A DNA stretch of 61,142 nt, counting the filler. It is 11 parts of 11 records of this genome, joined end to end, with 100 filler letters (N's around TTAATTAATTAA, not from the genome) between each part and the next. Parts side by side here need not be neighbours in the genome. Positions count along the whole stretch, not along the records: positions 1 to 11,134 come from SRR7504441_2817; 10 more parts are not named here. The stretch is one strand, 5' to 3'. The position numbers and the translations under genes were made by a program. The notes below the pieces were generated by a model that was not told the DNA's origin, did not search any database, and worked only from the letters and a program-made list of their open reading frames with translations. Positions within the stretch are counted from its first letter, which is position 1, and each line of letters begins with the position of its first letter. Of the stretch, positions 1 through 58,955 are shown piece by piece.

Positions 1-203
1 AGCACTCATGGCCGTGGGCAGGCGGGGGAGCCCAGTGAGTCCGGAAGTGAAGCGGGCGATATTTTCATTTTTAGAGAGTGTCTGCTTGTGACCTGAGTAC
101 ATGATTGTACATAAAGTATGTATAATGGTACGCGTAGCCACGGGTACGGTCGTACGCGGCCGTCTGCATGCGCCGGACCCTACCAGTGCGTACGTTCCTA
201 GAT

Positions 204-1755
204 TCACATCAAATTTGTACTATCCCCATTGAAGGCCTGCTTCCTCTCCCCAGGCCGATCGTCATCCCGGAACTCGTCCATCTTGTGCACACGCCTACGC
301 ACCTCGCCCCCCGCAGTGCCGTTCCGGCTGGCGCCGCGGCCCTGGCACCAACCCATTCAGCACCAACCCAGCCCTCCGCGCACCGCTGTGCTGCTCGGCG
401 GTGGCCCAGCTGCCCCGCCTGTTCCTCCTCCCGCAAATAAGCTATACACAAAAGCCAGCGCCTTCTCGTGGCAGCTGCAGCCGTCTCAGGGGCCGCTCTC
501 ACGAGGCGCGCACCGGAGGGCTGGCCCGGCTGCGGCAGCAGTGTGGTGTGTCACCCTCACGACTTCGAGAAGCGCAGTCGGCGTCAGTTGGAGCTCGGCC
601 AAGCTCTGGGTCATCTGAGCTGGCCCCAGAGCCCGCCGAGGGTATGTGTTGACCAGCTGAATGGCCGAGCCCTCCACTCGCTCCTCGGCCACCGCCTGCC
701 CCGCCGCTTGCCCCAAGAGTTAGTGCGGGAGCCACTCGGGCGTCTGCGAGCGGGCTATGCGCGTCGAATGTGTGTCGGAAGCTGCTGCCATCTGGCAGCT
801 GGAACTTTATGGTCGCCTTGGCGCCCGGCTTGGCTGCAGCTGCAGGTCGCTGTGTGTTGCCCTCCGCCGCTGCGGCAGCCTCCGGCGACGCGGCATGCTG
901 GGCCTCTTCGCGAGCCTTCTTCCTCTCCTCTTTGTCAGCCTGTATTCGAGCCAGGACCTTCTTCTTTTGCTCGGCCGCGTCCTTCTTGGCCTGCTTCCGC
1001 TCCTCCGCCGCCCGCTTCACCGCAGCGGCCTCCCGGGCGTCCCTTTGCTGCTGTATTATCTGCCCATCTTGCCTCCGCTTCTTCTCTCCGCTCAGCTCAG
1101 CTGCCGCCTGCTCCTTCGCTTTGGCTGCTTGAATCTCCGCCGCCCGCCTCTGGAGCGCGGCCGCCTTCTCCTTCAGCTCACGCGTCCTGACGGCCGAGGC
1201 CTGCTCCGGGTCGGCCGTAGTTTCGTCCGCTGCTGCTGGGGTGGAACTGTTGGCGGGACCGGTCGCAGGAGGCTCGGCCGGCTCGGCAACAGGGGCTGCG
1301 GGCTCGCTGGCAGCGGCGGTTGCTTTGCTCAGCGCTGCCAGCAGGGCCTCGGGTGACAGCTCGCCGGTCTCGACTGCCAGAGGCCTCGGCGGAGCACTGC
1401 AAGCAGGGGTCAGCTGCGGTCAGGGCAAGCGGCACCTGTTGACGTCGATCAAGTAGGTGGTGGGAAAGACAAACACCGGGAAGATGGCCATGAACTGCAT
1501 GGCGGCCTCGGTGCCCTGGACCCCCGCCATGGGCCGAGCCCCCCCCCCGGTTGGTAGGGTTAAGGGTTACGGCACCGCCGAGAGGCATAGCGCCAGCACG
1601 TTCTGGCCGGTGACCGCCTCAGCCACGGCTGGATCGGACCAGGTGTCGCTCGGGGCAGCGCCCTCGTGCACGTGGACCAGCAACAGCCGGCCCTCTTGCT
1701 GACAGAGGGCCAGGGCTTCCGGCACCGACCCACCGAAGAACAGGGGTTCAGCCAT
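204..1755 (-). CDS. UBX domain protein (UBXN4/erasin-like), multi-exon
   Basis: N-terminal thioredoxin-like segment (FFGGSVPEALALCQQEGRLLLVHV), charged coiled coil (VLARIQADKEERK), UBX core (ATIKFQLPDGSSFRHTF) and C-terminal FNGDSTNLM resembling the UBXN4 tail; exons joined by short introns. Confidence 0.75.
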
Positions 1756-2277
1756 CTTCCTTCGGGTGCGGCTACGGTAGGCTACAAAGCTACGAGAAAG
1801 ACGCGGTCGACGCTGTAATCATGGCGGCCTCCTGACCAGGTCTGGTTGCGGCGGTAGCGGTCGGGCCGATCGGCTCCAGGGCAGGATCTGGGCACCGATC
1901 TTGGGGCAGGACAACTGTGCGTTGGGTGGTCGGCGGCCGTCCGTGAAGAACGCGCTCCCGACTGGATACAACTCATCAACTCGCAACAGTCAGAGCCCGT
2001 CAATCAGCTCGCGCTCGTAATGCTGCGGGTAAGGCCGCTCGCTGTACACGTCCCGCAGCGTGGAACCGTGGTGGCTGCGGGACAAGTCGGCCGCACGGAC
2101 CGCCAGCACTGCCAGCCACACCCCCAGGGCCCGCACCAGCCGCCGCATCCCTGGTGGCTCACTCAGGCCAGCGCCTCGGCGGCTCCCCTGCGATGAGACC
2201 GGATTGGGAAGTCCACAACATTCCCTCCGATTGTCGTTGTAGCCTTGCACCCCGGCGCACCTCCAGGCAGCAGCAGC

Positions 2278-3996
2278 ATGAGTAGCCCCGTCGGCGCGAT
2301 CCGCAATCTGTTTGAGCGGATCGACAGCAACGGGGATGGGGTGCTGGACCGCGCGGTGCGGCCTGGCCGCCTGGCCCAGCCGCCCACGCCGCCGGGCGCA
2401 GGAGCTCGACGCCGTGTTTGGCGGCAAGTCGGTGATCATGCTTCAGAAGCTGCTCAGGCGCCCCGCCGCGGCCCGCAGCCGCTCAGCCCGGGACCAGCAA
2501 CCCGGACATCGAGGGGGATCTGGTCAACCTGGCCCAGTGGACCGCCTTCATGCAAGGCGTGCAGGCTCGCGCCGGCCCCGGGGCGCGCCCGCGACCGGCC
2601 GGGGCAGGAGCAGCGGGGGGCGGTAGCGCTCGACACGTTCGTCAACTACCTCAACCGGAGCTGCGACACCCTGCTGCTGCACACCATGGCCCAGTCCAGC
2701 CCAGCTTCGCCCGCGCAGTCCGACGACACCGCCCCGCAGCCCTCCGGCGCCCACCCGCCCGCCGTCTCTCCGGAGTCGGACGGGCCGGCCGCCGGGCAAA
2801 TGGCCGCGATCGAGCCGCGGACCAGTCCGTCGGCCCCGGCTGTCGACCCGAGAGACCACCAGTTCTGGGGCGACTCGGCGGTGGGGAACACGTGAGAGGG
2901 CGGGCCCGTGGCTGCGGCTGACGGCTCACAGGCACGTGCCGCCGGACATTATGATTAAGATTGTGCGGCCCGACCTGTTCGACGAGGAGATCGACTACAA
3001 GCAGCTGTTCGAGGAGGAGCAGGTGCCTTGTGTGCCGGGGCTGGCTCACCGGCGGGCCAGAAAAAGGCGGCTCTGGAGGTACCACAGCGGGATTACACAG
3101 AGACCATCGTGCGGCCGATCTCGTCGGAATTCAGGCGGCAGAACGACCCGCGCTCGGTGATCATGTCCGGCTTTAACGGCGTGATGAACGCGGCCGAGTA
3201 CGGAGCATACGGTGCACCACACTCCCTCAGTGCAGGCGCTGACTGCTGTAGTGCAGAGTTTGAGGTACACCCTGCGAACGGGATCGAAATGATGGACAAC
3301 TTGCTGCACGTGGCCGCCCGGGCCTGCAACATCCCGGCGATCGAGCTGCTGATCAAGGACGGGTTCACACTCTCCCGACGCAACCAGAGCGACATGGTGA
3401 CCCCGGCCCACAAAGTATTGACCGCTGACACGCCCCCCCAGGTGGCATACCAGTGTATACCAGACAACCACCCGCGGGCGGCCGAGGCCCGGGCCTGCTT
3501 CCCACTGGAGTGGGTGGAGCGGTTCGGGCGGATGACTGCCGGTGCAGCCAACAAGGCGAACAACCCTTTGCTGATTGCCAAGAAGAAGAAGGCGGCGGCC
3601 GACAAGCTAGAAGAGCAGCGGCTGAAGCAGGAAGCGGTGATGGAGGCCGAGCGCCGGCGCAACCAGTACGGCAACAGGCTGGCCATGGACAGGCAAAGGC
3701 GGCAGGCTGAGCAGCAGCGATGGGATCAGCAGCTGATGCACGCCACAGTCGAAGCTCAGCTGCTCGAACTCGAAGCCGACCATCAGCAGAGGTCGCCCGC
3801 GCGCAGGGCCTCCCCGCGGATCGCGTCGCCGGGCAAGTCGCAGCTTGGTGCTTCCAAGAGCAGGAGCAGGAAGCCCGGACTGCCAGAGGCGGCGCGAGGC
3901 AAGCAGAGCATCAGCGCAGTAAGACAAGGAATATATGACAAACACAGGCCGAGCAGTGCGCGCAAAAAGCCTGGCAGGAGCACGGTGCTGTGCTAG
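2278..3996 (+). CDS. EF-hand plus ankyrin-repeat protein, multi-exon
   Basis: EF loop LFERIDSNGDGVLDRAEL after splicing 2356-2401; removing 2458-2497 and 2565-2607 (both GC-AG) restores frame; ankyrin-like NLLHVAARACNIPAIELLIKDG downstream. Linkage of the two halves is inferred. Confidence 0.6.
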
Positions 3997-4265
3997 GTAA
4001 AGCACAAGTGGGCTGCTGTACGGAACAGCAGGCCGGCACGAGTACGCAATACGATTAGGCGTAACAACGAGCTCTAAATAACTAAAGTATGTAATACGTG
4101 GGCGGATTGTTGGTTAGAACAATTTCTTCGTTTACCAGCCTTATTACGATCTATCGGGATCGCCGGGACCTAGTCTATCGCTAGTCTTACGCTACCTGGT
4201 CTATCGCCATGCTACAATCCATCATGCCCCTGAAGAGCTGCTCAGGCACCGCGCACCACAGCTGC

Positions 4266-4676
4266 TCAGCCCGGGGCCACAGGCTCGGGCGGCGGGCCAG
4301 CGCCTTGCCCGAACGCATTCGTTGGGACTCCCTGCGGCGGGGGCGCGGCGGGGCTGCCACTCGACGAGACCCGCTGCGGTGCCAGAGTCGGGTTCCACGC
4401 ATTCATTGGATGGGACTCCATCGGCTTGTCATACGACGTGCGCATCTCGAACGCATTCAGCGGCTTCGGGGTTGCCTTTGGTTTGGGCTCCGGCTTGGCT
4501 TTGGGTTTGTCCTCTGCGGCTGCGCCTGCATCCTTTGCGCCTGCAGGCTGCCCGTCGGCCAGTTTGTCTGATGACTTCTTCGGCCCATTAGCTCCGATTA
4601 TTTCGGCGTCCCGCTGGATCTTAAGACTCTTCCTCGCATCCTCGCCCTTGTCCCCGGTGCCGCAGCACCCTCCCAT
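4266..4676 (-). CDS. Small, probably acylated protein (MGGCC N-terminus); 3' end uncertain
   Basis: ATG-initiated ORF with a myristoylation/palmitoylation-type MGGCCG start and a Lys/Pro-rich body. Confidence 0.5.
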   Translation of the reverse strand: MGGCCGTGDKGEDARKSLKIQRDAEIIGANGPKKSSDKLADGQPAGAKDAGAAAEDKPKAKPEPKPKATPKPLNAFEMRTSYDKPMESHPMNAWNPTLAPQRVSSSGSPAAPPPQGVPTNAFGQGAGPPPEPVAPG

Positions 4677-4775
4677 GGCGGCCCCGCACCCCGCCTCTGG
4701 GCGGCGAGTCCGTGTCTGCAGCGAGGATGGATGAGGAAAAAAACAAATGAAATCGGGCGGTCAACCTCGTCAACA

Positions 4776-6340
4776 ATGCAGGTCGGCCTTCTCGTTCTCC
4801 TCCTCGGACTCACTGCCCGATCGCTGTCTGCCGATGTGCTGGTCGGCCACCCCGAGGCCGGATACTCCGGACTGCGCTCGGCGCTGGCGGCGCAGACAAG
4901 CTGCAACGACTTCCAGACCATCCAGAGCTGCGAGGCGGATCCTTCGTGCGCCTGGTCGCACTTTGGGTGCGTCAGCAAGCACCCGGCCTGCCTGGTGCAT
5001 TCGGGCCCGGGGCTCGAGCAACTGAATCCGGCCAACTGCTCCTCGCTCACGCTCCTCGGGGTGCTGCCGCCCCCTGGCCTGCTCGACTCCCTCCGGTGCC
5101 CTGCGCTGGCCCTCCTGGGCTCGATGGACGGCGTCACGCGTACCTCCCACTTGGCTGTGGCCCGCGAGCGGATCGGCGGCGAGCGCCTCCGGTTCGGCCT
5201 GATCGACGGCGCCACACACCACAGCTTTGCCGACCCGGGAGTCTCAATTGTGCCGGACGACCTCCGGCCAAGCTTGCCGCACAGCCAAGTGCACGAGCTC
5301 ACCGCGGCCGTCGTGGCCGGTTTCGGTCACGGTCGGGACCCAACGGCGCTCGAGCACGCCGAGCGCCGGGCCGCGATGGTGGCCGCGCCGCTGGTGCAAG
5401 CACTCAAGCTCGAAGGCAGCACGATGCTCGGACAGCCGGCCTGCAACTCGGACTTTCCGACAAACCCGACCTGCCAGTACCCCAAATGGCCGGACCACGC
5501 GCTGTTCCCGGGACCGGCCCCAGCCCCGTCCCCGCTCCCGCCGTCGGACTGCGTGTGCGGCTCGCCGTGGGTTGCTGAAACAGCCAACAGAATCATATCC
5601 GGCCTGTCAGAGTCCGCCAAGCCGAGCTTCACCCAGACCGCCAAGGACGCTTTCCACGACGTATCCGACACGCACCCGTTTCACCTGCCGCACATCTTCA
5701 ACTCATGTGACCAGGCGGCCAGCAGCTGCCAGCTCAACATGACCACGCTCACGATGCCCGTCCACCAAGACAGTCCGCTTTTCCCAAACAGCTCGTCGGG
5801 CCCTCTGAGTGTCTTCGAGCTGCGCTCAAAGATCAAGTCTCGTGAGGCGGTCTGGGAGGCGGCCGGGCTGGGGCCGCAGGATTCCAAGAAGACCGACCAG
5901 AACATGACGATGTGCAGGGCTGTCAACCAGGCAGCCTACGACTGGGCACTCGAGCACGCTGATCCGGCCGTCCGTGCGCAGTTCGAGAAGGACGGCGAGC
6001 CGTTGGTGATGGTTGACGACAAGCCGGCCACGATCGGGATCACGGGCCCCGAGTGGATCAAAGATGAGCTGGTGAGTGGCACTTAGCCTTGATGTTGTTG
6101 CTGGTAGATTCATTCGCACTTGTCCCATCCGCCCTCGGGAGGTGCTCAGGCGCTGGGCAGGTGTACACCCGGACTAGCTCGGCCGTGGAGGTGCAGTCGT
6201 GGCAATTTGTGGTTGGCAACACCAATCAAGGCAAGGTGCCCTGGTTCTTTCCAGTCGGGATGCACTACTGCAAGCTGCTCTCGCCCGCCCGCGCCATGGA
6301 GTGGATCTACACCGACGGGCTCCGTCGTGCACGCGGCTGA
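4776..6340 (+). CDS. Secreted Cys-rich protein of unknown function (possibly alpha/beta-hydrolase-like)
   Basis: Signal peptide MQVGLLVLLLGLTARSLS, long ORF; intron 6072-6160 (GTGAGT..CAG) joins KDEL|VYTRT to the C-terminal YCKLLSPARAMEWIYTDGL. Confidence 0.65.
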
Positions 6341-6963
6341 ACTCCGTCAGTGTGATGTTCGATTGAGCGCCCAAGGACTAACTTTCCTACATCCAATGCT
6401 CATGAATTGCGTACACACCATTAATTAAGCTCAAAGGAGTTGAAATCTTGAGTCAATGAAAATGAAAAGCTTGGCCAGAGATTCATACATGTAGTATCTA
6501 GTATCAAGGACGACTCTGCCGGTAGGCTTGTATTGATACAATACATGTGTACAATAAAACTCCTCGCGTGCGTCGCGTTACGTCGCGTGCCCTTACAACC
6601 CACCCGACTTGAGAGCTGCCACGACACACAGTCAGTGAGTACGAAAAGCTAGTCAGTATACTAGCGCTACATGTAGCTATAGACATTATAGGCATCCCTA
6701 GCCGGACTCTGGCACTCCGCGGCACTCAAGGACGCCCTTCTGACTCGTCTGACTGTTCCGATCGCGAGTGCCTCGATCGAGGAGCAGCGCGTTCCCAAAC
6801 AAAGCCTAGGCCTTATTAAGCTTGAAGAATCTCGAGGCGCAGCGGTTTCCCAAAGCGCGCCTGGCACCTGCCTGTGGGTGCCCCAGCAGCCCACGGGAGG
6901 CGCTACGACCCGCACTGCATCGGATGGCGCGTACCGGTCCGCTGCGCTTTCGGCCAGCCGGTC

Positions 6964-7776
6964 TTAGACCGACAGGCACAGAACTGAATTCAGAATGGTG
7001 TCAAAATTTGCCCTTTCCTCTCCGAACTTATTTTGGAACAGGTCATAACCAATAGTACCGTAGATTAGTACAAGCACCAGCATGATGGCCACCACTGCCA
7101 ATAGGGACGGGACGCTGTGCTTTAGTCCGTCCATAGTTGCATGCACAGTGTCAAAGTGCCTCAGTCCCTTTGTGGCCCGCAAAACTCGGAATACACGGAG
7201 CGCTCGGAACACAGCAAAGCCATCAGCAGCATCAAGAGAAAGGGCGAGGTCCAGAATCATGGACATACCAGCCAGAAGCGATACTACACAGTCGAACCTG
7301 TTCCAGGCATCTCTGAGATACCCTCTGAGACCAAAGGCAAATATTTTGAGGAACATCTCAATCAAAAACAGGGTAGAGAAGAAAATGTCACAACAATAAC
7401 CACACAAGACACGATTTTGAACCCAGGATGGTACAAGAACCGACCAAACGACGTCTCGATCTTCAACAGCCCCAGGTCCTTCGCCGCCCGTACCTCTGCC
7501 CATCTGGAACCCGACGCCTGGATTTTCAGGGTGAGCTGGCAGGGAACCCAGGCAGGCAAATGCCTTGGGGGCTGCAGCATCGTCTTCAGGCGGACCAGGA
7601 ACCGTCTGAACGTTCCCCGGCGGCAGTGGCGGCGGCGGCAGCGGCGGCGGCAGCAGTGCCGGTGGCGGGGGTGGCGCAGGCGGCTCCTCGTCCCTGCTGC
7701 ACCGCATCAGCGGCTCGGCTGCAGCCGCCTGTGACCGGTCAAGGGTCGGGGCGCCTGGGCACGCCGCCATCGCCAT
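6964..7776 (-). pseudogene. Truncated, frameshifted voltage-gated cation channel (Cav/Nav-like) repeat
   Basis: S2 (FLIEMFLKIFAFG), S3 (WNRFDCVV), S4 (FRALRVFRVLR), S5 and start of the pore helix (NFDTILNSVL) then a stop; the S1-like FLYHPGFKIVSCVVIVV lies in another frame. Confidence 0.6.
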
Positions 7777-8796
7777 TCAGCTCGGTCAGACGCTCGGCTG
7801 GCTAGAGCCTGACCCTTTGCTGCCGCCCGGTGACAGCGCCGAACAGGGCGATGAATCCCAAAAATAATTATACCGCATTTTCGGTTCAGATGCGTAGGTA
7901 CGGTACACAGAACGCATGCAAGTACGTAGGAGCCCTGAAACCAATTGGACATCTCGCACTTGAGACCGGACGTGCTGGCGGCCATGTGATGGAAGTTAAG
8001 AAGTCTACTATTTAGGTATTCATTGCCTTATACGCTTACGCATCTGGTGCGCGCCCGCATACATCGTTGGCGCTCATTTGCGCATCTAATAATTTTTGGT
8101 ACTTATAATACCTGCACGGCCAAACCGCCACTGCAGCAGACCAGCTCGCACCGCCGCCTCCCCTGAGATAACCACCTCGTCTACCAACAGATCAATGCCA
8201 GCCCATCGGTTCATGAAGAAACGCCGCGTCCGCGCCCCGATTGATCCACCGTCGCCGGCCCGGCCCCACGCCCGGCCCATCCCGCATCTCCTGCGCAAAC
8301 TGGCGTCCAGCGCTCCGCACTGCCCCGACGTCTCCTGAGCTTTGATAAAGCGCGGCCAGGCTGCCCCAGCCCTCAGTGCGCCGGCCCGCGTCTCGGGCGG
8401 CACCTGCTGGAGGCCCCCGCGAACCCACTCGACGGCGGGGGAGGTGGCTCCACGAGCCCCACCCCTGGGAGCGCTACCCCGTTCACAAGCTGCCCCGAGC
8501 GCGCCACCAGCGCTGGGCCTTCCGCCAGGCTCCTGCAGCGGTGAAGCAGGTCCGATGGCTGCGGCGGCGGACACTCCGGGGCGGCGCGACGGGGAGGGGG
8601 CGGCGCGACCTCCTCCTCCGACTCGGAAGAATCCCACTCGTACCGCCGCCGCAGCCCGTACTCCAGCCGGACGACGTCCCTATTGTCTGCGACCATGAGT
8701 GGGTAGAATGCGGTTTGGATTCGCACATTTTCTGGCCGCCCTGGTCTGTTGAGACTTGCCGAAGCGCGTTACAGCCAGGACCACTGATCGGTGTCC

Positions 8797-10998
8797 ATGC
8801 GCTGCCTCATCCTCGTGCTGGTGGGGCTGCTCGGTGCCCAGCCCTCGGCCGGCCGAGCGAGCCGGTGGGGGCTCAGGCTGCTACGTACCAGCGCTGTGTC
8901 AAGGATCCTTGGAATGGAGGGAGAATTACCTCTACAAGAACGTCCGCCTGAGACTGGCCTGGCCTGAGCGCCGGTGCAGGTGCTGCGCAACAGCTCTCTG
9001 TACGACAAAACCACCTACCCGATCGGGATGGACATCAACGTCACGTTCCAGGTATGGGCCACGTCGGCGGGGCCTGACGGGCGCAGGTCATGTCGATCAT
9101 GGAGGTCAACGCACGCTACGGGTTTCTATTCATCCAGGGCGCCCTGCGCTCGTGGTGGAGGTGTCCAGAGTCCCGCTGCCCGCGGCCCACATCGGGCGCA
9201 GCGACTCGCGGCTGACGTATAACAAGACCGAGCACGGCTCACCGTCGGGCTACTTGCTGGTCAAGGAGGAGGACATGTGGTGCGGTCACCCTGCCTGCCT
9301 CTCCCGGAGCGCGGCGCAGGTACCCGGACGACCTCGGGGTAGTCAACGCGTACTTCGCCGAGACGCACGATGCTGCTTCGGGTCAAATCGCAGTCAAGCC
9401 CGACGGCAGCTGCTACATGTCTGTGGTGGGTGTCGATTGAGCTGTCGACTGAATCTCGGGACAGGTGGCAACAATGAAATTCAACTGCGTGATGGAATTT
9501 CGCGACTTCCCCTTCGACAAGCAGGTGTGCCCGATCACCCTCGAGTCGTGGATGCACAACGACGCTTGGCTCAAGGCAACTAGCTGCGCCGCGCTGCGAG
9601 ATTGACGGAGGACAGATCGCGCATAAATCGGATGCGGTTAGCAAGTTTCTGTCAGGCGATGTTCTTACTGCTTCACACAACGAGTTCGACATCATTGACG
9701 GCGGGTTCGACAGCAAAACATCTAGTTATGACAGCGGCGATTATACTGTATTGTCATGGTATGTCAAGCTGGACCGACACACGTGAGATCCCTTGAGCCA
9801 GCGGAGCCTGATCTGCTTGGTCGCAGGTCCTTCTTCTTCGCCATGGTGTTTATCCCGTGTACTACGCTCAACTTCTTGGTCTGGTTCTCTACTTTCATTG
9901 TACCCTGCCAGGCACCTGCCCAGCTAATTGACCTTCTGCCCAGGATCCGAATGCCGCGCCCGCCCGAGTCGGCATCTGTATCACATCCGTCCTTACTATC
10001 ACCGCGCTCAGGATTCCTATTGCGAGTTATGTATCTGCACCCGAGCGGAGTTCGGTCTGAGGCGACGGGGATCTAGGTGCCTGTGGTTGACTATGACACG
10101 TGGATGAGCGACTAGTGAGTCCTGTTCATCGTGATGAAGAGCTCTTACCTGTGGTGTGCGACAGTTTGACCGGCTCGCTGTCGTTTACTGCGTGTTGTCT
10201 GCTTGAATACTGTCTCATCAATTACTGGCTCAAGAAGGGAGACAGAAAGGTTGGGTGGCTCTGCTGCTTGCCAGCCTGGTTCTACCATTACATCTGTTGT
10301 CTGGATTCTGACATGGTCAAAGAGCAGCTGGACCTCTACAGCGACCCCACCCGCGTTACACTGGCACTGCTTAGTAGGCCCCGGTACGATGAGAGGTCCC
10401 GGTCCAGCAATGGAAATGGGAAAGTGTCAAACCCTTCACCTGGGGTTGGGGTGGAAGTGCATCTGAATGCGCTCCAAGATCAATCAATCGATCTCGACAC
10501 GAAGATGGAGTCTGGAGAGCAGCACAAGGCCCACCCGAACCTGGCACCGGAGCAAATTGCTGCGTGCCGCAAGATGTTCGACAGCTTTGACACCAACAAC
10601 TCGGGCGACATTGACAGCAGTGAACTCACGGCAGCCACCCGCATGCAGCTGGGGCAGGGCTGATCGGCGGACAGGTGGCGATGAAGAAACTATCCCCGAG
10701 CATGAAGGAGGACGCGGTGTGGCCAGCGAGGGAGCGGGTCGAGCCAGGCCAGGTGGAGGAGCTGATCAGCCAGATGGACATGGATAATAATGGCACCATC
10801 GAGTTTGACGAGTTCCTGGAGATGCATGTTATGATGACCAAGAAGGAGGTTTTACACAAGGTCATGACCTACAAAGAGCTGTCGATCGTCGCAGAATTTT
10901 ATTTCAGAATTTTCTTTCTGGTTGGGCTGATTACCTACCTGTCAATCATGCTTTACTTCGGTATGTCTGGCTACTCGAAGCTGCGTGGTCAGTACTAA
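8797..10998 (+). CDS. Pentameric ligand-gated ion channel (Cys-loop, anion-type) with EF-hand pair in the M3-M4 loop; about 13 introns
   Basis: Spliced product: signal peptide MRCLILVLVGLL, WWSDSRL, MWYPDD, Cys-loop CVMEFRDFPFDKQVC (9486-9530), M1 FFFAMVFIPC..WFSTFI, DPNAAPARVGICITSVLT (M2), M3 ..LLEYCLINY, EF loops DTNNSGDIDSSE and DMDNNGTIEFDE, M4 YFRIFFLVGLITYLSIMLYF. Confidence 0.9.
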
Positions 10999-11134
10999 TT
11001 AGACTAATTACGCGTCATGATCCGTGTACATACAGATGCATAATTAAAGTATTCATTGTAATGATGGGTGCGTTTCACTCTCACACCTGGACTCTGGCTG
11101 GCCGCGCCGACCGAGACTTGGCAGTCAGACTGGG

Positions 11135-11234
11135 NNNNNNNNNNNNNNNNNNNNNNNNNNNNNNNNNNNNNNNNNNNNTTAATTAATTAANNNNNNNNNN
11201 NNNNNNNNNNNNNNNNNNNNNNNNNNNNNNNNNN
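11135..11234. other. Artificial contig linker (N-run/TTAATTAATTAA/N-run); also at 14470-14569, 17862-17961, 21427-21526, 26254-26353, 29382-29481, 32764-32863, 44409-44508, 48942-49041 and 56496-56595
   Basis: The same 100-nt cassette with six-frame stop codons occurs ten times. Confidence 0.99.
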
Positions 11235-34433: not shown

Positions 34434-35022
34434 CTGGACGGGCCAGCAGGCTGCGGGCTCCTTACGCTGTGCCGCATAGGCCGGTGCACGCTGTGGCCGA
34501 ACAGTTGTGGCCAATGCCGCCCAATAAACACCAAACGTAATGCGCTGTGCTCAGCCTGAGCCATGCTTGGTGCAGCACTTGGTCGGCGTAAGAGCGCACC
34601 AACGAAAGGTGATCAATTCCAATAGCCTGCACTTTCGTTGTCCCGGGTGAACATACATAAACAAAATGCGCGCCAGCTTGTCGAAGTTGCACCTGCCGAC
34701 TGCACCCCAAAGTGCTCAGTGCGACAATCCGATGGTGCTTTGATCATCGAGGCGATTGAGGCCGCGGTTTGCAAAGAAGCCTTCGAAGCTCTACCGGTAT
34801 GAGAGGTACTACGCTGAGGCATTCGCCAATAGGCCGACCAAGATCGTCTGATTTCCCACGAGAGCACCAGATATTGCCTCGTGCAAGTGTGTGGCTACAG
34901 TATTAACCTCGTAACCTTGAGCATCGCGACGTGCGCCTCAGTTGCCAGCAGCAGCTCATCATCATTTTCGAGAACGCTCGCACGGTAGCACACCGCGCGG
35001 AGTACACAGCCAGGACAGCGCA

Positions 35023-36297
35023 ATGATCAAGATATCCAACGCCAGCTACGAGGCGTTTGTGAGCGCCTCCTCCGGAGCCGTTGGAGCTGCTGTGGCTACC
35101 GCGGCCCTGTACCCGTTCGATCGAGTCAAGGTTGCACTGCACAAAGCCCCGGAGCCGGTGCCGGTCGGGCTGACAGCCGGCCGAGTTGGCTGGGCAGGGC
35201 GAGCAGCCGTACAAGTCGGGCACCGAGGCCTTCCTGGCCATCATGGCCCGGGACGGACCAAGCGGTGGCCCTGTGGCCTGGTGGCGGCGAGCGGGCGGCA
35301 GGCCTGCTCCAGGGTGGCGGCTCGAAGACGCTGCAGGCGACGGTGCAGCGGTTCATTTACTTTTATTCGTACAGGTTCTTCATGGACAAGTGGGTCAAGC
35401 AGTTTGGGGCCCCGGTGGGCACGCTAGCCAACCTGTTCATCGGGTACATCAGCGGACTGGTCCAGACCGGCTTCACGCTGCCGATCGAAGTGGCAAACAC
35501 CAAGTGCACCGCCTCCGGCAAGTCGTTCGGCCGGGTGCTCGCCGAGACCATCCAGACCGACGGGCTGGCCGGGCTGTTCCGCGGGCTGGTCGCCTCGATT
35601 GTGCTGTGCATCAACCCGGCGATCCAGTACACTGCGGGAGAGCAGCTCCGTGGAATCCTGCTCCGCGCCACCGGGCGAGACCCCCTGAACAGCAAGCTCT
35701 CGCTCGGGGCAGTTGAGGCGTTCGTGCTCGGGGCGTTGGCCAAGATTCTGAGCACGATCACCACCTTCCCTCTGATTCGGGCCAAAATCATGATGCAGAC
35801 CACCAAAAAGCAGGCAGGCGCCCGAGTGGAGGAAGAGTTGGAGCGATTCGCCAGACAAAGCTTCGCGCAGGCCGACAAGAACAGTAACGGCAGCTTGACC
35901 AAGAGCGAGCTCAAGCGCTGGCTGCAACGGCACCCGCAGGCCAACCAGAGCCTGGGCGGGGCGAGCTGGCAGGAGCTGTTTGCGAGTGTTGACGAGGATG
36001 GCGACGGGCAGTTCAGCCTTGCTGAGTGGACTGCGTTCGTCAAGTCCAAGGCTGTGGCACCAGTCCCAGCAGGGATGATGGAGATTTTAGGCTACATCGT
36101 CGAGCATGAGGGGAGCGTGGGCCTGTTCAAAGGACTCAATACACAGCTCACCAAAGGCGTTCTAAACGCTGCGCTGATGAAGATGATCCAAGAGAGACTC
36201 AACGGTGGCATGATTGCCAGCGCCATCCGTTCTAATCCGTGTGCGTGCAGGGGCCACCCGAGCAGGGCTCAACACTGTCTTTGACCGGTCCCGTTGA
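35023..36297 (+). CDS. SLC25 carrier (peroxisomal adenine nucleotide/PMP34-like) with an internal EF-hand pair
   Basis: Three carrier motifs YPFDRVK, LPIEVAN and FPLIRAK; EG..GLF[RK]G segments; LCINPAIQY typical of peroxisomal carriers; EF loops DKNSNGSLTKSE and DEDGDGQFSLAE; three short introns. Confidence 0.88.
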
Positions 36298-57578: not shown

Positions 57579-58838
57579 CTACACCAACAAATTGAGCTGT
57601 CGGTAGCTTGGATGATCGATAGGCGGCATCGCGTGCCCGTCATCATGCAAGCACGCGCTAACCTTGCAACCAGCCGCCCGCCACATCTCCTTGAGTTTCT
57701 CCACATGCAACGCGCAGCCTTGCTCGTCCAGCAGCCCCCCCGATAGAAACACCTTTAGTTTGCCATAAGGAGTCTCCGCAATCTCAGGCAGCACGAAAGC
57801 ATCCGCTCGACCTAGCTTCTGCCGCATCTCGTAAGAGTTCATCATGCACGACCAGCCGGCGATGAATCCTATCTTGCGCTCGCAGGCCCTGTTGATCCTC
57901 TCCAGACGCTCAGCCAGCTGCATCACCGCGGAAAATCCCTGAGAGAACCCACACAGCCCATCATACCCGCCTGCTCGCACAATCTGCCGCTCTAGACTAT
58001 CAATCGGGGCATCAAGCGCTGCCTCATTTCTCGGCAGGTTGCGGTCGTATCCGCGGTAGTATTGCGGTTCAAAGTCATAGAAGCTGTACAGCTCAATCGA
58101 GCCTTCGAGACCGGCGGATCTGAAGTCCTCGCCGAGACCCACCGACTCGTGGAGCTGAGCGGCCGACAGCCGGACCTCCCCCTGCGCGCACTCCACCTCG
58201 GCCTGCCCGCCGAATGCCTTCCGGATCAGATCTGCCCCTCGCCCTGAGCCCAGAGCCGCACGGCACGCACCGATCTGAAAGTCTCTCGCTATTTGGGCCG
58301 AGCTGCCGTCCCCGTGAAGGAAGAGCAACTTCAACGGCCGCCGGATGGGCAAGCCGGCCGGACCCGGGACCGGCGCCCCGGCCGCTGCCCCGGCCGCCTG
58401 CTGCAACGCGGCTCGGAGCTTCTTGATAAGCCCGGTAATGGCGGCCACCTCCTCCGGACGGCGCCGGTGATGGTTGGGGTCGAACTGCGGGTGCCGCCAC
58501 TGGTCGCCGTTGGTATCGGCCGCTGCCTCCCTCAGCCGCTCAAGGTCGCGTGCGGCTCGCTGCATCGCTCCCATCCGGACACGTCTCGGGTCGCTTTCCA
58601 CCGCCCGCAGCACCGCCGCTGTGTCGGCCCGGACCAGACCGGCCGCTTCCAGACCGGCCAGCTGGTCCAGCGTCACCGGCATCGGCACGTGCACGTGGCC
58701 TTGGTCGGTATCCGGCGACTCCAGGCTCTGGGCTGCCCCGGGCTTGACGATCCCGGACTCGACCCCGGCCTCGAACTCGGCCCGGTCGATCTTGCCGTCG
58801 CCATTGGTGTCCAGCTTGTTGAACGTCTTGTCTGCCAT
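57579..58838 (-). CDS. FSH1/OVCA2-family serine hydrolase with an N-terminal EF-hand
   Basis: FNKLDTNGDGKIDRAEF; LKLLFLHGDGSS, YDGLCGFSQG (nucleophile elbow), HDDGHAMP. Confidence 0.8.
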   Translation of the reverse strand: MADKTFNKLDTNGDGKIDRAEFEAGVESGIVKPGAAQSLESPDTDQGHVHVPMPVTLDQLAGLEAAGLVRADTAAVLRAVESDPRRVRMGAMQRAARDLERLREAAADTNGDQWRHPQFDPNHHRRRPEEVAAITGLIKKLRAALQQAAGAAAGAPVPGPAGLPIRRPLKLLFLHGDGSSAQIARDFQIGACRAALGSGRGADLIRKAFGGQAEVECAQGEVRLSAAQLHESVGLGEDFRSAGLEGSIELYSFYDFEPQYYRGYDRNLPRNEAALDAPIDSLERQIVRAGGYDGLCGFSQGFSAVMQLAERLERINRACERKIGFIAGWSCMMNSYEMRQKLGRADAFVLPEIAETPYGKLKVFLSGGLLDEQGCALHVEKLKEMWRAAGCKVSACLHDDGHAMPPIDHPSYRQLNLLV

Positions 58839-58955
58839 CTCACTGCGCAACAGCTGCCAATGCTGCCTGCCGCCGCACTCCTTGCCACCGACTGGCCCAG
58901 ATTGAAGCAACGGAAGTTACACTCCATGGGTTAAAGGGCTTCCACGCATGGGAAG

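Follow-up and report, generated by a model that had tools for sequence, protein, structure and literature searches.

A marine protist gene for a Cys-loop receptor subunit with a calmodulin-like EF-hand pair in the M3-M4 loop

The window analysed here, a 61,142-nucleotide stretch of DNA, contains at positions 8797-10998 on the (+) strand a gene of 14 exons and 13 introns. Its spliced coding sequence (CDS) of 1662 nt specifies a 553-aa subunit of a pentameric ligand-gated ion channel, or pLGIC, that carries two EF hands in the loop between its third and fourth transmembrane helices (M3 and M4). The locus is an expressed gene of a marine, GC-rich, intron-dense protist. Conserved motifs and alignments support the view that it encodes a complete Cys-loop pLGIC subunit, and the combination of channel and EF hands is almost certainly real. 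The structural part of a preliminary description of this DNA, which had proposed a complete pLGIC from one gene and transcript, an anion-type signature at M2 and a canonical EF-hand pair in the M3-M4 loop, has thus stood. From the same motifs, anion selectivity, gating by an extracellular ligand, tuning by cytosolic Ca2+ and the resulting coincidence detection can reasonably be inferred.

Gene structure and transcript evidence

The three forward frames between 8700 and 11050 consist of short coding blocks, with a change of frame every 70-170 nt, and among the frames that the gene itself uses the longest stop-to-stop open reading frame (ORF) measures 188 aa, in line with the earlier statement that no single ORF holds all the domains. 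Candidate GT/GC...AG introns were enumerated for frame openness and then compared with public RNA contigs. Where about 13 tiny introns had been anticipated, exactly 13 were found, each with a joint in an RNA contig. They are 35-50 nt long, and 11 of them are GT-AG and two GC-AG (9576-9615 and 10631-10674). After splicing, the frame is open throughout 553 codons from the ATG at 8797 to the stop at 10996-10998. A tblastn search with the spliced model found no second copy of the gene inside the window.

An index search identified 12 RNA runs, from 7 studies, that contain part of the locus; all are marine or seawater metatranscriptomes. Four runs were aligned to the locus, X1 and X2 from one study and X3 and X5 from two others, with the alignment likeness set to 90%, a level at which other organisms can contribute. 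The transcript evidence consists of assembled metatranscriptome contigs, not of single molecules. Splice joints for 13 of 13 introns were present in these contigs. Eight joints were seen in at least two runs, and five in X1 only. Three of the latter, in the extracellular domain (ECD; introns beginning at 9161, 9280 and 9426), have as their sole source a 530-nt contig that is about 94% identical to the window. This contig, differing at about 5-6% of positions, is from a related strain, an allele or a paralogue with the same intron positions.

The membrane-spanning part and the EF hands are joined in a 917-nt X1 contig (0-2 mismatches per listed piece), which together with the joint table spans 9748-10928 in the order ECD end, M1, M2, M3, loop, EF1, linker exon, EF2 and into M4. 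The loop region 10165-10629 was contiguous in X1 contigs, and parts of it were contiguous in X2, X3 and X5. Gaps in the RNA cover of the gene in X2, X3 and X5 carry no weight either way. At this locus RNA contigs from three studies were collinear with the genome. The first EF hand (EF1) shares exon 12 and its frame with M3, the second (EF2) shares exon 14 and its frame with M4, and only the 42-nt exon 13, which encodes the linker between the hands (10675-10716), stands apart. Because of this arrangement, skipping of whole exons cannot yield a channel that lacks EF hands, and because the 917-nt contig runs from M1 to M4 through both hands, the locus is one gene. Splicing out of the EF exons and division of the locus into two genes, which the preliminary description had named as outcomes that would undo its proposal, are ruled out by the exon structure and this contig. 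The open frame and the canonical spacing of the EF loops arise only when 10631-10674 is removed.

The RNA depth over 10792-10824, a 33-nt segment covering the EF2 loop and its exiting helix, was in the hundreds to thousands in all four runs, and the loose contig ends on both sides of it differ from the window. This depth is that of other highly expressed calmodulin-like EF-hand genes from many organisms, which have near-identical codons there, and not of pLGIC expression.

Channel core, EF-hand pair and relatives

Pfam scans were run exon by exon on the unspliced pieces. The Cys-loop exon (exon 7, 37 aa) matched Neur_chan_LBD (PF02931) with 39.5 bits (E 5.5e-10), well over that family's cut-off of 26, and the C-x13-C loop reported earlier was confirmed as C152-C166. 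Scanned singly, the piece of the M1 exon and the remaining five pieces of the ECD exons matched no Pfam family. The ECD pieces align with two environmental proteins, P0002 and P0009, both of which pass PF02931. The translation places N-x-S/T sequons of the ECD at N38, N54 and N90, and the hydrophobic N-terminus is a putative signal peptide, judged by hydropathy. All four transmembrane helices of the preliminary description were recovered: M1, M2 and M4 are hydrophobic, the hydropathy of M3 is under the threshold of 1.5, and M1-M3 and M4 align gap-free to P0002 (Neur_chan_memb, PF02932, 64.6 bits). M4 is followed by 12 C-terminal residues.

The PAR motif noted earlier ahead of M2 corresponds to P267-A268-R269 (9959-9967), immediately before M2 (270-290), which has Leu at 9'. 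In animal receptors, P-A-R at -2' to 0' correlates with anion selectivity. The best PDB matches of the M2 exon were transmembrane domains of glycine receptor (GlyR) alpha-1. For P0009 the best solved relatives were GlyR alpha-2 (1.3e-21) and GABA rho-1 (1.6e-21), followed by GlyR alpha-3 and alpha-1 and GABA-A beta; the first cationic receptor, a nicotinic acetylcholine receptor (nAChR), appeared at 7.7e-12, below GlyR and GABA receptors at 1e-21 to 1e-12. A paper on Cys-loop receptors (Jaiteh, Taly and Henin 2016; PMC4795631) gives Pro at -2', Ala at -1' and Arg/Lys at 0' for the cytoplasmic mouth of M2 in anionic receptors, versus Gly-Glu-Lys/Arg in cationic ones, and takes this signature as the definition of 'anionic-type' receptors in protists. 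Taken together, the motif and the matches suggest a pore that probably prefers anions.

In the M3-M4 loop, both EF loops fit a PROSITE-type pattern: in each, position 1 is D, position 3 is D/N, position 5 is S/N, position 6 is G, position 8 is I and position 12 is E. The pair had been placed at about 10561-10830 in the preliminary description and was indeed found there, within a slightly wider module (Table 1). EF2, in exon 14, scored 26.1 bits for EF-hand_1, over the cut-off of 25.4. Once spliced, 24 residues separate the two loops; the spacing between the first and second loops of calmodulin is likewise 24 residues. The nearest solved structures to EF1 in the PDB were the first EF hands of centrin/caltractin, troponin C and calmodulin, and the nearest to EF2 was calmodulin residues 49-75, which makes the pair collinear with the N-lobe of these proteins. 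Spliced residues 425-510 aligned over positions 4-78 with the whole EF pairs of P0001, P0003 and P0007, which are unrelated multi-EF proteins, at 40-44 bits. The 553 residues contain only two EF loop patterns, that is, a single lobe and not a four-hand calmodulin. The profile scan that had been suggested as a check thus gave matches above the cut-off for Neur_chan_LBD and EF2, and matches below it for Neur_chan_memb (18.3 bits against 28.1, on the 27-aa M2 exon piece) and EF1 (23.6 bits). Given the retained ligand positions, the pair very probably binds Ca2+.

In an AlphaFold2 model of exon 14 alone, residues 12-80 form a single predicted helix, and the block-mean pLDDT is at least 93 for residues 21-70. 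The predicted helix is continuous from the exiting helix of EF2 into M4, and the end of the EF2 loop is about 24 residues from the start of M4.

A HMMER scan of exon 12 against 1.84 billion representatives gave eight matches at E <= 0.001. By Pfam these were one channel (P0002), six multi-EF-hand proteins that matched the EF1 segment only, and one unrelated GH25 enzyme; none of the eight was collinear over M3 and EF1. P0002 is an environmental protein of 373 aa, truncated at the N-terminus (Neur_chan_LBD 61.8 bits, in addition to the Neur_chan_memb match given above), and its match to exon 12 was confined to residues 2-118, which cover M3 and the proximal loop. Three fragments and the full-length P0009 (526 aa) came from word-index searches seeded with P0002 and with an alignment; the former gave three matches, P0002 itself included, and the latter four, including P0002 and P0009, which are rows of the alignment. 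No EF-hand Pfam entry occurred among the matches seeded with P0002 and the alignment, in a collection with very few relatives and hence a weak census. P0002 is 59% identical to the spliced model over 366 columns and P0009 36% over 495 columns, and both have the same type of Cys-loop, the P-A-R and the post-M3 and pre-M4 motifs of the window protein. In these two relatives, the ones found with a complete loop, both the EF loop pattern and EF-hand Pfam matches are absent. P0002 follows the loop of the window protein to just before EF1, has two residues in place of about 75, and resumes the match at the pre-M4 motif that the family conserves; on either side of the module, the flanking residues align with P0002 and with P0009. 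This alignment indicates that the EF pair is a discrete module that was either inserted in the lineage of the window protein or deleted in the other. There is no intron at the module borders and no break in GC content or in GC at third codon positions (GC3) along the CDS, and composition therefore gives no sign of a foreign origin.

A D-G-S-N-N-G stretch of P0002 was considered as a relic EF loop. One MAFFT run aligned it with EF2 and another placed it upstream of the module; it misfits the EF pattern, no Pfam EF hand was found in P0002, and the candidate was dropped.

Other collections gave little. A protein homologue search with exon 12 returned 264 candidates, none at E <= 0.001; metagenome contigs contained no related loci by exon 12 or the channel alignment, viral contigs none by the channel alignment, and the ESM Atlas gave no usable match to exons 12 and 14. 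Genome contigs searched with the channel alignment yielded 39 prokaryotic pLGIC loci of 19-29% identity, and the EF loop pattern was absent from all 39 ORFs, which are distant and mostly loop-less, so that this says little. As a census of the architecture across eukaryotes these searches are incomplete, the collections being without spliced eukaryotic proteins or without matches.

The segment following M3 (10235-10300) has two Cys-Cys pairs in a basic, aromatic, membrane-adjacent stretch that is partly conserved in P0002. As a speculation, this stretch might be palmitoylated or might serve the EF lobe as a target helix.

Table 1. Features of the pLGIC gene and its 3' flank, in window positions
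Feature	Positions	Residues	Strand	Basis or remark
Exons 1-7	8797-8833, 8877-8941, 8980-9051, 9087-9160, 9202-9279, 9320-9425, 9465-9575		+	
Exons 8-14	9616-9782, 9827-9899, 9944-10030, 10077-10114, 10165-10630, 10675-10716, 10753-10998		+	exon 14 includes the stop
Introns 1-7	8834-8876, 8942-8979, 9052-9086, 9161-9201, 9280-9319, 9426-9464, 9576-9615		+	
Introns 8-13	9783-9826, 9900-9943, 10031-10076, 10115-10164, 10631-10674, 10717-10752		+	
Putative signal peptide	most in exon 1 (8797-8833), rest in exon 2	1 to ~21	+	Kyte-Doolittle 19-residue windows 1-6 = 1.8-2.2
Extracellular ligand-binding domain	8980-9782 (exons 3-8)	~35-236	+	Neur_chan_LBD on exon 7; alignment to relatives
Cys-loop C152-x13-C166 with FPFD	9486-9530	152-166	+	15-mer CVMEFRDFPFDKQVC
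M1	9828-9899	238-261	+	hydropathy; alignment to P0002 and P0009
P-A-R (-2', -1', 0'), then pore-lining M2	9959-10030	267-290	+	translation; GlyR alpha-1 transmembrane-domain matches
M3	10165-10234 (start of exon 12)	~303-326	+	alignment to P0002 and P0009
Cytoplasmic loop		326 to ~516 (~190 aa)		
Proximal M3-M4 loop: basic, Cys-rich membrane-proximal stretch, then low-complexity linker	10235-10546		+	intron-free; partly conserved in P0002
EF-hand pair module	~10547-10836	~431-500	+	broken by introns 12 (GC-AG) and 13
EF1 loop DTNNSGDIDSSE	10589-10624	445-456	+	EF-loop pattern
EF2 loop DMDNNGTIEFDE	10777-10812	481-492	+	EF-loop pattern
Pre-M4 helix with family motif, then M4	10837-10959	M4 ~517-541	+	hydropathy windows 514-527; conserved in P0002 and P0009
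3' flank to contig end	10999-11134		+	

Proposed mechanism and alternative explanations

The explanation that we favour, at somewhat better than even probability, is that the gene encodes an 'anionic type' Cys-loop subunit in which an EF pair resembling the calmodulin N-lobe has been inserted upstream of the pre-M4 helix and makes the channel Ca2+-tuned. The topology of pLGICs is invariant, with the N-terminal domain extracytosolic and the M3-M4 loop cytosolic. In a pentamer, the ligand-binding domain would face the outside or the lumen of an organelle, and five EF pairs would place ten Ca2+ sites on the cytosolic face beneath the pore. An agonist would open the anion-preferring pore. Binding of Ca2+ would open the EF lobe and thereby re-orient the pre-M4 helix between EF2 and M4, and the lobe might also clamp the basic, hydrophobic, Cys-rich segment after M3. 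The outcome would be a change in gating, in desensitisation, or in conductance or ion access through the cytoplasmic vestibule, and the channel would integrate an external chemical cue with the Ca2+ state of the cell.

That Ca2+ directly modulates channel function is suggested by the position of the pair, and we lean slightly towards it. The fuller proposal, in which Ca2+ bound at ten EF sites under the pore directly controls the opening or conductance of a ligand-gated anion channel and the sensor is a recently acquired insertion of about 75 residues, is more tentative and falls somewhat short of an even chance. The recent acquisition is proposed because P0002, despite its 59% identity, is without the module.

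Several observations weigh against this explanation. The Cys-loop exon is nearest in the PDB to the cation-selective nAChR-type subunits des-2, acr-23 and alpha-9, and the subfamily placement of the ECD is consequently mixed. PMC4795631 cautions that selectivity assigned from a P-A-R-type motif is a prediction, the motif being a correlate only. On the transcript side, the three ECD joints mentioned above are known only from the ~94%-identical contig, at the 90% likeness setting. Intron 12 (10631-10674), a GC-AG intron inside the EF pair, was spliced in a single contig, from run X1. In X3, a contig that is contiguous over 10623-10715 and then spliced to 10752 retains intron 12, and an X2 contig covering 10492-10646 extends 16 nt into the same intron. 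Retention introduces a stop at 10661-10663, ahead of EF2 and M4. In the reading that we favour, the retaining contigs are RNA whose processing at a weak GC donor was still incomplete; retention may also be a regulated step. The EF1 score is slightly under the EF-hand_1 cut-off, on a piece that is cut by the exon end, and the AlphaFold2 model is a single-sequence model of an isolated fragment, in which the EF loop is unformed and pLDDT is 51-74 in the first 20 residues. The EF pair is also dispensable for the basic channel, since the close relative P0002 is without it.

Among the alternatives, an artefact of combination is hardly credible. A chimeric contig, a mis-joined transcript contig or two adjacent genes might be suspected, as the window is a chain of separate contigs, the RNA evidence comes from assembled contigs and the form spliced at intron 12 from one run. 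However, the gene lies inside one contig (1-11134), EF1 is in the M3 exon and EF2 in the M4 exon, in frame, contigs from three studies are collinear, and P0002 and P0009 align with the sequence on both sides of the module. It is less far-fetched, though still unlikely, that the pair binds Ca2+ as a docking or trafficking module, capturing a cytoskeletal, scaffold or enzyme partner in the manner of a tethered calmodulin lobe for clustering, internalisation or localisation of the receptor, and does not directly change gating. The M3-M4 loop of animal pLGICs is mainly a scaffold-binding and trafficking site, the pair resembles the target-binding lobe of calmodulin or centrin, and P0002 retains the whole channel core without the module. 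Against a purely docking role, the module stands directly before the conserved pre-M4 helix and not in the variable mid-loop, and its predicted helical continuity with M4 suits mechanical coupling.

Loss of Ca2+ sensing is improbable. Many EF-hand domains are structural, and with EF1 slightly below the Pfam cut-off the pair could be a structural bundle, or be permanently loaded with Ca2+ or Mg2+, in an ordinary receptor with an unusual loop; yet all canonical ligand positions are kept in both loops, including Gly6 and Glu12, EF2 passes the EF-hand_1 cut-off, and an alignment with EF pairs of the functional type covers the spliced pair completely. Only slightly more probable is a channel of an organelle (the vacuole, a calcifying or secretory vesicle, or a plastid-surrounding membrane) instead of a cell-surface chemoreceptor; its ECD would face the lumen and respond to a lumenal ion or pH, and cytosolic Ca2+ would be its main physiological gate. 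The targeting information is limited to the signal peptide, and behind its Cys-loop the ECD retains the aromatic Trp of agonist-binding nAChR-type subunits; both points speak against this alternative. On the other side, a single-celled organism has no synapses, the EF pair would be cytosolic whichever membrane holds the protein, and pLGICs gated by protons or ions exist: a 'pH gated chloride channel' and a 'Proton-gated ion channel' were among the PDB matches to the M2 exon, the Cys-loop exon and P0009.

Of all parts of Cys-loop receptors, the least understood is the intracellular domain between M3 and M4, which is mostly disordered, is missing from many structures and is known chiefly as a site of indirect regulation. 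A receptor with a compact Ca2+ switch on the helix leading into M4 would be a ready-made tool for asking whether, and how, conformational changes of the intracellular domain are passed on to the pore, and P0002 and the window protein offer a natural pair, without and with the EF hands, as a control for coupling between intracellular domain and gate. If the proposal is true, this protein would be the first among pentameric ligand-gated channels to have a cytosolic Ca2+ sensor of its own, and unicellular plankton would couple membrane chemical sensing to Ca2+ signalling in one polypeptide. TMEM16 and bestrophin are existing routes to Ca2+-dependent anion conductance, and the window protein would represent a third. 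Should the architecture prove widespread in protist proteomes, it would define a catalogued but uncharacterised family.

Genomic context and comparison with known systems

The window consists of 11 separate contigs chained by ten spacers, each N44 + TTAATTAATTAA + N44, the first at 11135-11234. The pLGIC gene lies wholly within the single assembly contig at positions 1-11134. Gene neighbourhood is therefore meaningful only inside one contig, and nothing past 11134 is physically linked to the gene. About 1 kb upstream in the same contig, an ORF piece at 6964-7776 (-) matched Ion_trans (PF00520) with 105.8 bits (E 2.8e-30) and has an S4-like segment of Arg repeats; by the Ion_trans match, a gene of the voltage-gated cation channel type adjoins the pLGIC gene. 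A divergent ORF at 8376-8768 (-) has its start near 8697, some 100 nt upstream of the start codon of the pLGIC gene; this ORF is acidic and rich in Pro, and a Pfam scan assigned it no family. Arranged head to head, the two genes would have only a very short intergenic region between them.

EF hands also occur in two other ORFs of the window. In a mitochondrial-carrier ORF at 34989-36281 (+), which scores 71.3 bits for Mito_carr, residues 288-353 hold an EF-hand pair that follows the carrier repeat (Pfam match 144-225) and is not N-terminal, and an FSH1-type serine hydrolase ORF at 57582-58916 (-) (FSH1 40.8 bits) has an N-terminal EF hand (EF-hand_5 31.4 bits). These ORFs suggest that the source organism has EF modules joined to proteins of many types.

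Animal glycine, GABA-A/rho and GluCl receptors have in common with the window protein the Cys-loop, the four-helix transmembrane layout and A-A-P-A-R-V-G at the start of M2, whereas the Cys-loop exon of the window protein looks more nAChR-like. Animal receptors are not known to have a folded Ca2+-binding domain in the M3-M4 loop. Intracellular Ca2+ acts on these receptors indirectly, through kinases, phosphatases and diffusible factors.

The nearest published group is the 'anionic type' of protist Cys-loop receptor; PMC4795631 describes protist receptors of this type and of the cationic type, which bears out the earlier remark that pLGIC homologs exist in some protists. In that paper the 'anionic-type' group is reported from Emiliania, Aureococcus, ciliates and opisthokonts, and its unicellular members, like the window protein, have true Cys-loop cysteines and an anion-type signature before M2. 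The M3-M4 region is treated there as variable and gap-rich, in contrast to the EF pair that the window protein has in this place. The main text of the paper contains no mention of EF-hand, calcium, calmodulin, 'fused' or 'additional domain', and an EF-bearing member may hide in its supplementary alignment, which has 126 protist sequences. We found no description in the literature searched of a pLGIC with EF hands in its loop, the papers in which the terms co-occur having been judged in part from listings; in two of them, on gene-prediction errors in the lancelet (PMC4967905) and on the EF hands of two-pore channels (PMC11085791), the co-occurrence was unrelated to such a protein. The channel itself is thus a new member of the published protist group, and its combination with EF hands may sit unremarked in domain-architecture databases.

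The two hands of the window protein are collinear with the first and second hands of the N-lobe of calmodulin, centrin and troponin C, with equal loop spacing. Unlike calmodulin, the module comprises one lobe, of two hands rather than four, and is embedded in a membrane protein. A parallel in arrangement is offered by the two-pore channels, in which, according to PMC11085791, the cytosolic linker carries two EF hands, one of them needed for Ca2+-dependent gating in plants. Plant TPC1 and the window protein thus both have an EF pair in a cytosolic linker between transmembrane parts. The fold and gating of TPC1, a voltage-gated dimer of 2x6 transmembrane helices, are unrelated to those of a pLGIC, however, and TPC1 is an analogue of the mechanism only.

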